From: Escherichia coli
Lineage (GTDB): Bacteria; Pseudomonadota; Gammaproteobacteria; Enterobacterales; Enterobacteriaceae
Direction: 5' to 3' (one strand)
Length of the DNA stretch: 64,000 bases
Assembly (NCBI RefSeq): GCF_044324785.1
Contig: NZ_CP172127.1
Position numbers and translations under genes: made by a program. The notes under the pieces were generated by a model. It was not told the origin of the DNA and made no database searches. It was given only the letters and a program-made list of their open reading frames with translations. Shown here piece by piece: positions 31,245 to 33,275 of this stretch. Positions within the stretch are counted from its first letter, which is position 1. The number at the start of each line of letters is the position of its first letter.

Positions 31245-31429
31245 GCGTTTCTTATTCCCTGACAGGGTTTACGGTACTCAGGAATACTGAAGCCTATACA
31301 AAAAAAAGCCGTGTAAAACCACGGCATACCTGACCTTATAAAGCCAACTACTTACGATCAGATGGCGCAGACTATATCACTGAAGCCCTACGCTAACAAA
31401 TAGCGCGACTCTCTGTAGCCGGATTATCC

Positions 31430-32626
31430 TCAGCTTGCGAGACGCATCACCTCTTTTCTGGCGACTTCACGCGCGTTCGCATCAACAGATAACACATCGT
31501 CCACACATTGTGGTTCGCGCATATCCATTTTTTCCAGTACGGATAAATTCAACGCGGCGATATCCGTAAAGCGGATTTGTTGCGCAAGAAAAGCAGCAAC
31601 GGTGATTTCGTTTGCGGCATTCAATGCTGTCGTCGCTGCCTGGCCTTGTTCGAACGCCTCCATCGCCAGTTTCAGGCATGGATAACGATCATAATCCGGT
31701 GCGGCAAATGTCAACGCACTTAGTTTGCAAAAATCGAGCGGCTTCACGCCAGAGTTCACGCGATTCGGCCATGCCATGGTGTGGGCAATTGGCGTACGCA
31801 TATCCGGTTCCCCCAGCTGCGCCAGAACACTGCCGTCCTGATAGCGCACCATTGAGTGAATCACTGACTGCGGGTGAATCAGCACTTCCATCTGGCTGGC
31901 GCTGGCGTTAAACAGCCAACGCGCTTCAATGTATTCCAGACCTTTGTTCATCATGGTAGCCGAATCGACAGAAATTTTACGCCCCATCGACCAGTTCGGA
32001 TGACGGCAGGCTTGATCCGGCGTCATTGTTGCCAAATCGCGCAATGGCGTCTCACGGAAAGGGCCACCAGACCCGGTAAGTAAAATGGACACCACGCCAT
32101 TTTGCTCAAGGTCAGCGTATCCCAGATTATGCTGGATAGGTTGCGGTAAACTCTGAAAAATGGCGTTATGTTCGCTATCGACCGGTAACAATTGCGCTTT
32201 GCTCTGCTTTACGGCGTCCATAAACAGACGTCCGCAAGTAACCAGTGATTCTTTATTGGCCAGCAAAATGGTTTTACCCGCGCGGATCGCAGCAAGCGTA
32301 GGTAACAGCCCAGCAGCACCAACAATGGCTGCCATCACCTGATCAACCTCCTCAAGCGCTGCCATATCGCAAGCGGCTTGTTGCCCACTTAAGACTTCGG
32401 TGCAGCTCCCCTGTTGCTGTAGCATCGTTTTAAGAAGTTTCGCACTCGCTTCATCGTCCATTACGGCATAGCGGGGAGAGAATTCCAGGCACTGTTCTAC
32501 CATGCGAGTGACATTTTTGCCTGCCACCAGCGCAACTACGCGGAAGTGTTCGGGATTATGGCGCACCACGTCCAGCGTGCTGCAACCAATCGAGCCGGTC
32601 GAGCCCAGAATGGTGAGTTGCTTCAT
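31430..32626 (-). CDS. dxr: 1-deoxy-D-xylulose 5-phosphate reductoisomerase
   Basis: 398-aa ORF recognised as Dxr/IspC (GSTGSIG NADPH motif). Confidence 0.96.
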
Positions 32627-32639
32627 GAAACATCCAGAG

Positions 32640-32700
32640 TTGAGACAGAATAAAAAGCAAAACGCCGCCAGCCGATCCGCAAGGATCTACTGAGCGGCGT
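32640..32700 (-). terminator. Compound hairpin downstream of frr (possible terminator/attenuator before dxr)
   Basis: AAACGCCGC ... GCGGCGTTTT outer stem with nested GATCCTTGCGGATC palindrome, followed on minus strand by U-rich run. Confidence 0.35.
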
Positions 32701-32717
32701 TTTTGTCGTTCAAGAAA

Positions 32718-33275
32718 TCAGAACTGCATCAGTTCTGCTTCTTTGTCTGCCAGCGCCGCTTCAATTTTCTTGATTGCAGCATCAGTCAGTTTCTGTACAT
32801 CGTCCTGAGAACGGCGATCGTCGTCTTCGCTGATCTCTTTATCTTTCAACAGTGCTTTCACTTTGTCGTTCGCGTCACGACGCACGTTACGTACTGCAAC
32901 ACGCGCTTGTTCTGCTTCACCACGAACGATTTTGGTCAGATCTTTACGACGTTCTTCCGTCAGCGGCGGCAGCGGAACACGGATGTCGCTACCCGCAGAG
33001 TTCGGGTTCAGGCCAAGATCGGACGCCATAATCGCTTTTTCAACGGCCGGAGACATTGAACGATCAAACACGTTGATTTTCAGAGTACGGGAATCTTCTA
33101 CCGTTACGCTTGCCAGCTGACGCAGCGGCGTCGGCGTGCCGTAATATTCCACGACAATGCCATCCAGCAGGCTGGGAGAAGCACGACCCGTGCGTATTTT
33201 GCTGATTTGGGTTTTGAACGCTTCTACGCATTTGTCCATGCGTACTTCAGCATCTTTTCTGATATCGCTAATCAC
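32718..33275 (-). CDS. frr: Ribosome recycling factor
   Basis: 185-aa ORF recognised as Frr. Confidence 0.96.

Follow-up and report, generated by a model that had tools for sequence, protein, structure and literature searches.

We found that the spacer between frr and dxr in the window, i.e., the whole 64,000-nt stretch of Escherichia coli DNA analyzed here, almost certainly holds the Rho-independent (intrinsic) terminator of frr, and that this terminator is leaky. The element is the already known, previously documented frr terminator and an ordinary member of the intrinsic-terminator class. Observations of structure, position, in vivo 3′ ends, read-through counts and conservation carry this reading. 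The RNA of the transcribed strand forms a stable GC-rich stem-loop, with the U-rich tract UUUUGCUUUUUAUU directly 3′ of the stem. It closes a transcription unit, in the orientation of frr, and starts 14 nt past the frr stop codon. RNA 3′ ends fall in the U-tract in vivo (284 and 222 reads), although the site is absent from the list of Adams et al. (2021), and the structure is retained in relatives despite sequence change, a supportive feature that does not define the class. The first-pass annotation had suggested a partial terminator that passes some frr transcription into dxr, and this suggestion was borne out by the minus-strand hairpin and U-tract, the mapped 3′ ends, a read-through of 6–19% and the presence of frr-dxr transcripts. 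The RefSeq/PGAP records annotate no feature in the spacer, which is why the element looked unexplained in the raw sequence. Its significance beyond correct annotation is small; it defines where the frr transcription unit ends.

The window is from E. coli: of 5426 complete E. coli genomes, 5424 matched a 1-kb query around the site, with frr and ispC/dxr as the annotated genes. The terminator element occurred at one place per genome in 5424 of the 5426, with an identity of 99% or more in 5345. Over 141 nt around the spacer, the alignment to K-12 MG1655 showed 100% identity, and coordinates were converted as MG1655 = 193430 + (32717 − window coordinate). On the minus strand of the window, the gene order is rpsB-tsf-pyrH-frr-dxr-ispU-cdsA-rseP, and the flanking genes are all co-directional. 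The ORF limits of frr and dxr gave a spacer of 91 nt (32627–32717), the length that had been claimed before. A weak Shine–Dalgarno-like GGAUG is located at 32635–32631 (−) in the dxr leader. The coordinates of the features are listed in Table 1.

Table 1. Features of the frr-dxr junction in window coordinates.
Feature	Position	Strand	Basis
frr (ribosome-recycling factor) CDS	32718..33275	-	ORF list; matches to frr-annotated E. coli genomes; MG1655 b0172
frr stop codon UGA	32720-32718	-	sequence
Linker from frr stop codon to hairpin base, 14 nt, UUUCUUGAACGACA	32704..32717	-	sequence and fold
Outer stem 5′ arm, AAAACGCCGC, A-tract plus GC core	32694..32703	-	inverted repeat and fold
Hairpin interior: middle helix, inner helix, loop; two GATC sites	32669..32692	-	fold
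Inner helix GAUCC/GGAUC	32687-32683 with 32678-32674	-	fold
UUGC loop	32682-32679	-	fold
Outer stem 3′ arm, GCGGCGUUUU	32659..32668	-	inverted repeat and fold
U-rich tract UUUUGCUUUUUAUU; first four U able to pair with the A-tract	32649..32662	-	sequence
dxr leader on read-through transcripts, CUGUCUCAACUCUGGAUGUUUC	32627..32648	-	sequence
dxr (ispC) CDS, reached by read-through	31430..32626	-	ORF list; genome matches; MG1655

The spacer had been described as an outer inverted repeat enclosing an inner palindrome. The outer repeat is real, but it is one base longer than had been given: its arms, AAAACGCCGC at 32659–32668 and GCGGCGTTTT at 32694–32703, are 10 nt long, 100% complementary and 25 nt apart. 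The inner palindrome, GATCCTTGCGGATC in the minus-strand reading at 32687–32674, was confirmed with 5-bp arms and a 4-nt loop. Between the two lies a middle 4-bp helix (CAGU at 32692–32689 with GCUG at 32672–32669), which had been overlooked and which unites both palindromes. Folding of the minus-strand RNA, which had been proposed as a check, returned one single 19-bp hairpin with three single-nucleotide interruptions, consisting of a 10-bp outer stem, the 4-bp middle stem, a 5-bp GAUCC/GGAUC inner stem and a UUGC loop. Two Dam GATC sites, at 32674–32677 and 32684–32687, are located in the apical stem of the terminator, 10 bp apart.

The nested palindromes in the frr-dxr spacer are not a chance occurrence. 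None of 200 dinucleotide shuffles, which averaged −14.8 ± 2.8 kcal/mol, was as stable as the 54-nt hairpin region, with its folding energy of −30.4 kcal/mol (z −5.6); the fold of the whole spacer had a z of −4.2. When both strands of the 64-kb window were scanned for stems of −20 kcal/mol or better that end directly on a T-rich tail, just eight such sites were obtained, two of which, one per strand, are the frr-dxr locus. A consensus terminator scan of the window did not list the frr-dxr site. That scan requires an uninterrupted stem and a loop of 3–8 nt; the interruptions in this stem and a strict loop of more than 8 nt explain why it missed the site.

We then compared the hairpin with published transcript 3′ ends. 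SMRT-Cappable-seq, which sequences full-length primary transcripts, gives 3′ ends inside the U-tract (PMC6131387, Supplementary Data 1). For transcripts from the frr promoter (TSS 192616) in M9 medium, the termination site (TTS) was 193491; 475 reads started, 284 ended at the TTS, 72 passed it and 17 ended within 50 bp downstream (PMC6131387). In rich medium, the TTS from the same TSS was 193490, and the corresponding reads were 556, 222, 30 and 254 (PMC6131387). Both TTS rows carry the label "terminator b0172 193470", i.e., they were matched by the authors to the previously known frr terminator (PMC6131387). The hairpin and U-tract together span MG1655 193444–193498, and the midpoint of this span, about 193470, is the annotated center. 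By the 100% identical alignment, 193490 and 193491 correspond to 32657 and 32656 in the window, in the U-tract and 6–7 nt past the GC core. This distance is the classical release position.

The check by 3′-end mapping was nevertheless divided in its outcome: SMRT-Cappable-seq ends are present here, whereas the curated Term-seq list of Adams et al. (2021), which covers three growth conditions, has no entry at 19348x–19350x. The neighboring ends in that list are 190800, 192871, 192996 and 194843. Thresholding or 3′-end heterogeneity may lie behind the absence, and the discrepancy remains. The TERMITe supplements contained no per-site E. coli table with the frr terminator coordinate, and the TRS paper mentions frr for its 5′ UTR only.

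Read-through into dxr was computed from the published counts as 19.3% in M9 and 5.9% in rich medium (counts from PMC6131387). The difference is threefold (Fisher p of about 1e-9 on read counts) and comes from two libraries that differ in 3′-end spread (17 versus 254 reads). By these counts, the terminator holds transcription into dxr about 5- to 17-fold below that of frr. Eight transcript contexts are shown for frr (PMC6131387). The variants ending at frr are frr alone, pyrH-frr, tsf-pyrH-frr and rpsB-tsf-pyrH-frr, and the read-through forms are frr-dxr, frr-dxr-ispU, frr-dxr-ispU-cdsA, pyrH-frr-dxr and tsf-pyrH-frr-dxr (PMC6131387). According to the same paper, RegulonDB and earlier literature (Shimizu & Kaji 1991) held a monocistronic frr transcript only.

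The transcripts that cover dxr all start upstream of frr, at TSS 192616, 192813, 191734, 191811 and 190794 (operon table, PMC6131387). The SMRT-Cappable-seq operon list contains none starting between frr and dxr and none with dxr only (PMC6131387). A promoter scan of the frr-dxr spacer gave no promoter-like site. The distance from the U-tract to the dxr ATG is about 30 nt; since no start site was detected in these approximately 30 nt between terminator and ATG, the dxr mRNA, together with part of that of ispU-cdsA, would come from read-through. That is, E. coli dxr mRNA appears to be made by read-through of the frr terminator, as judged from the operon list of one dataset, and from this one list we infer that dxr has no other promoter. 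A stronger proposal starts from the lack, in E. coli, Citrobacter and Salmonella, of a promoter-like element that 15 sampled loci of other Enterobacterales genera have downstream of the terminator; dxr of this lineage would be expressed only through condition-tuned leakage of the frr terminator (threefold between M9 and rich medium), perhaps by way of ribosome occupancy at the stop codon 14 nt upstream. We regard this as unlikely. If it were true, the dosage of envelope and isoprenoid genes would be tied to the translation-factor operon, and perhaps also to the state of ribosome recycling. The dxr gene is essential, and its product catalyzes the first committed step in the MEP route to isoprenoids. 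It follows from the read-through that altering frr transcription or the hairpin should change the expression of dxr, ispU and cdsA. The practical relevance lies in MEP pathway engineering, cassette insertion at frr and CRISPRi at frr.

Conservation was assessed in a sample obtained by a DNA-pattern scan for the Dxr N-terminus with one genome per species, which gave 109 loci, almost all from Enterobacterales. In 102 of the 109, frr lies directly upstream of dxr, and all 102 of these Enterobacterales loci have a hairpin and T-tract in the spacer (96 by fold, six by eye). With a hairpin cut-off of −10 kcal/mol or better, 96 of the 102 showed a hairpin starting within 35 nt of the frr stop codon followed by a T-tract, with a median of −26 kcal/mol; in most loci of other species, the hairpin starts 13–22 nt after the stop codon. 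The six exceptions to the 35-nt rule were inspected by eye, and a terminator was present in each. They comprise Salmonella arizonae, in which the terminator is farther downstream of the stop codon, two Klebsiella loci with the outer stem around an insertion of about 125 nt, and three loci with an ERIC-like element ahead of the terminator. In L074 (Klebsiella michiganensis) and the related L096, the outer stem AAACGCCGTACAG...CTGGCGGCGTTTTGCTTTTT is kept at about 45–200 of the spacer; the insertion of about 125 nt in the outer-stem loop is self-complementary, and the hairpin reaches about −80 kcal/mol. Two non-enterobacterial loci, L057 and L087, one of them from a Burkholderiales MAG, have the end of a CdsA-like gene (…LDRIDAL…) 5–7 nt before dxr, and not frr; the frr-dxr junction is therefore not universal.

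An alignment of 38 sequences from diverse Enterobacteriaceae, Erwiniaceae and Dickeya separated the constant from the variable parts of the element. CGCCG/CGGCG and TTTT were invariant in 38 of 38, as was CGGCGTTTT of the outer stem 3′ arm, and the A-tract upstream of the stem was conserved. The next (closing) pair after the invariant core was U-A in 16 sequences, C-G in 13 and U-G in nine. MAFFT combined with RNAalifold recovered the 7-bp outer stem alone, because the interiors are too divergent for sequence alignment. When pairing of the interior was examined per sequence, 50 of 58 unique interiors folded better than 95% of their own shuffles (median z −2.9), a count that is descriptive, as the sequences are related. 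Apart from Escherichia, only two Citrobacter-like loci have the GATCC/GGATC stem. Elsewhere, the apical stems are of at least 10 unrelated kinds; GATC-containing stems of different design were seen in a few other loci. Yersinia, Serratia, Hafnia and Pectobacterium have a shorter, different stem, AGCGTCGC-loop-GCGGCGCU, followed by a T-run. These comparisons indicate that selection is on a long hairpin with a U-tract and not on the sequence of the palindrome. The comparative addition to the known terminator is that it is kept in every sampled Enterobacterales species, with an interior whose sequence drifts within a pairing constraint.

Four other explanations of the palindromes were weighed against the leaky terminator. 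The first-pass annotation had offered an attenuator, in which an antiterminator or a ribosome at the frr stop codon competes with the terminator so that read-through is tuned by translation status or growth condition. The read-through of 19% in M9 against 6% in rich medium is in keeping with this idea, as are the start of the hairpin just 14 nt past the stop codon and the condition-dependent read-through at other terminators (PMC6131387); however, the gap between the media may be technical, given the unequal 3′-end heterogeneity of the libraries (17 versus 254 reads). A competing structure can be drawn in E. coli, where, before the 3′ arm exists, the minimum-energy fold pairs frr codons AGCGGCG (32760–32754) with CGCCGCU of the 5′ arm (32699–32693). 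This candidate pairing requires two GCG codons (Ala-Ala), and species differ freely at the synonymous sites there; just some 20 of 90 unique sequences show pairing at that position, an E. coli variant differing by one base (L014) already lacks it in the minimum-energy fold, and the full RNA fold favors the terminator by a wide margin. A conserved antiterminator was thus rejected on non-conservation and synonymous codon dependence, even though the helix exists in E. coli. A search of Rfam 15 gave no leader or riboswitch match; at a permissive E-value, it returned noise only, the best overlap being rnk_pseudo with 20.3 bits against a gathering score of 55 (E = 3.4). With its sole candidate antiterminator not conserved and no Rfam family match, the attenuator was set aside as improbable. 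A control element acting in DNA, either a palindromic operator or a Dam-methylation-sensitive GATC site that governs dxr, would account for the perfect dyad symmetry and for the pair of GATC sites, spaced 10 bp, that the inner palindrome (32674–32687) carries just upstream of dxr. Such a site should keep its letters; instead, the inner sequence is replaced by at least 10 unrelated apical stems across species while pairing alone is kept, and the conserved parts, the GC stem and the T-tract, are terminator features. There is also no nearby promoter-like site or TSS on which an operator could act. A sequence-specific protein site is therefore disfavored, since the inner sequence varies freely and yet pairs, and the protein-binding option raised earlier did not hold up; we rejected the operator or Dam-site reading because the dyad sequence is not conserved, and its probability is close to nil.

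The hairpin may instead serve as a stabilizer or processing structure only; transcription would then continue past it, and 3′ exonucleases would shorten the longer RNAs as far as the hairpin base. SMRT-Cappable-seq cannot separate termination from such trimming. The great stability of the hairpin (−30 kcal/mol) would suit trimming, the 3′ ends are only 2–3 nt beyond the fully extended stem when A-U pairs are counted, the site is missing from one curated Term-seq list, and many reads in rich medium end up to 50 bp downstream. Against this stand the position of the ends 6–7 nt after the GC core, at the classical release position, and the canonical U-tract after the stem, conserved together with it in 38 of 38 aligned sequences. 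The site was also matched by the authors to a previously known terminator (PMC6131387). The conserved U-tract in particular speaks against a trimmed stabilizer without termination, which is unlikely, and we gave it a very small chance overall. A terminator acting in both directions, which would also halt antisense transcription from dxr toward frr, is suggested by the plus-strand hairpin (−31.4 kcal/mol, z −5.5), which is followed by TTTTTGTCGTT (window 32694–32710) and scores as a terminator too, and by the conserved A-tract upstream of the stem. However, the A-tract would equally serve sense-strand termination, as it makes the stem longer, the flanking genes all run in one direction with no convergent gene, and no antisense promoter, transcript or plus-strand end was seen in the data examined; a bidirectional role is thus decidedly improbable, though less so than the stabilizer. 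A REP, BIME or ERIC repeat was rejected because the element is present as a single copy per genome and not as many dispersed copies.

For the leaky intrinsic terminator, we propose the following course of events. Nascent RNA past the frr stop codon would fold into the 19-bp GC-rich hairpin (window 32703–32659, −) while the weak rU:dA hybrid of the UUUUGCU... tract occupies the active site. Most complexes would then probably release the RNA 6–7 nt after the GC core, and the hairpin may afterwards shield the 3′ end of the frr mRNA. The interruption of the U-tract by GC after four U is a likely cause of the leakiness, by which about 6–19% of polymerases go on. The terminator would thus act as a fixed step-down valve from a highly expressed translation-factor gene to low-abundance isoprenoid and envelope genes.

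The element was compared with known systems. The annotated E. coli K-12 frr terminator (b0172, center 193470; PMC6131387, whose text makes the comparison with RegulonDB) is the same object, with no sequence difference. Upstream in this row of genes, the known tsf terminator (b0170; TTS 191745) is a canonical intrinsic example that shares the GC-rich hairpin and U-tract after a stop codon. Partial read-through occurs at 70–75% of E. coli termination sites (PMC6131387), and the frr terminator is no different in this respect. Compared with canonical intrinsic terminators, its stem is longer (19 bp with three single-nucleotide interruptions) and A-U-extended, and after the first four U a GC interrupts its U-tract. 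It resembles leader attenuators and riboswitch platforms in that transcription has to pass a terminator directly ahead of dxr for that gene to be expressed; however, it has no conserved antiterminator or sensor, and it sits at the end of a translated gene instead of in a dedicated leader. REP/BIME and ERIC elements are likewise intergenic, GC-rich and palindromic, whereas the frr element is single copy per genome. ERIC/IRU-like palindromic elements, inserted next to the terminator and distinct from it, were seen in the frr-dxr spacer of several species, before the terminator in L037, L038 and L049 and after it in L048, L072, L090 and L110. These insertions lengthen the spacer to 183–318 nt and have the ends ...TACCCTAAATAATTCGAGTTGCAGGA... 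and ...GCAACTTGAAGTATGACGGGTAT; by their likeness to the ERIC consensus, they are putative ERIC elements.

Several further features were noted in the spacers and around the locus. In 15 sampled loci, a conserved promoter-like motif, TAGACA-N17-CAnACT, is found 33–47 nt upstream of the dxr ATG and downstream of the frr terminator. The loci include L003, L009, L013, L031, L043 and L073, and Cedecea, Hafnia, Buttiauxella and Chimaeribacter are among the genera; the motif is missing from the short spacers of E. coli, Citrobacter and Salmonella. Another hairpin, AAGAAGCAGAACUG-AUG-CAGUUCUGAUUUCUU, straddles the frr stop codon (window 32711–32745, −). At −14.7 kcal/mol, the fold of the 37-nt region of this stop codon is more stable than that of any of the 54 other stop regions of long ORFs in the window, whose minimum is −11.7 kcal/mol. 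The core of the E. coli stop hairpin, GAACUG/CAGUUC, follows from common codons of E-L-M-Q-F. In other Enterobacterales, the frr stop region often has a hairpin built differently, e.g., GAUGGAUUUCUAAUCCAUC in Dickeya, and z was below −2 in 32 of 82 unique regions. The dxr-ispU gap holds a hairpin, GCCGTGGTTTTACACGGC, followed by T8 (window 31308–31325, −). The MG1655 annotation has a small RNA, ispZ, at this place (194784–194844), and the hairpin also agrees with a Term-seq 3′ end at 194843 that is very strong (Adams et al. 2021). Two 3′ ends of Adams et al. lie near the start of frr, one at window 33276 (MG1655 192871), the base before the GTG start codon, and the other at window 33151 (192996), 124 nt inside frr. 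A 3′ end in the frr 5′ UTR is also given in the TRS paper, and the 256-nt 5′ UTR of frr (TSS 192616) may hold a regulatory element of its own.
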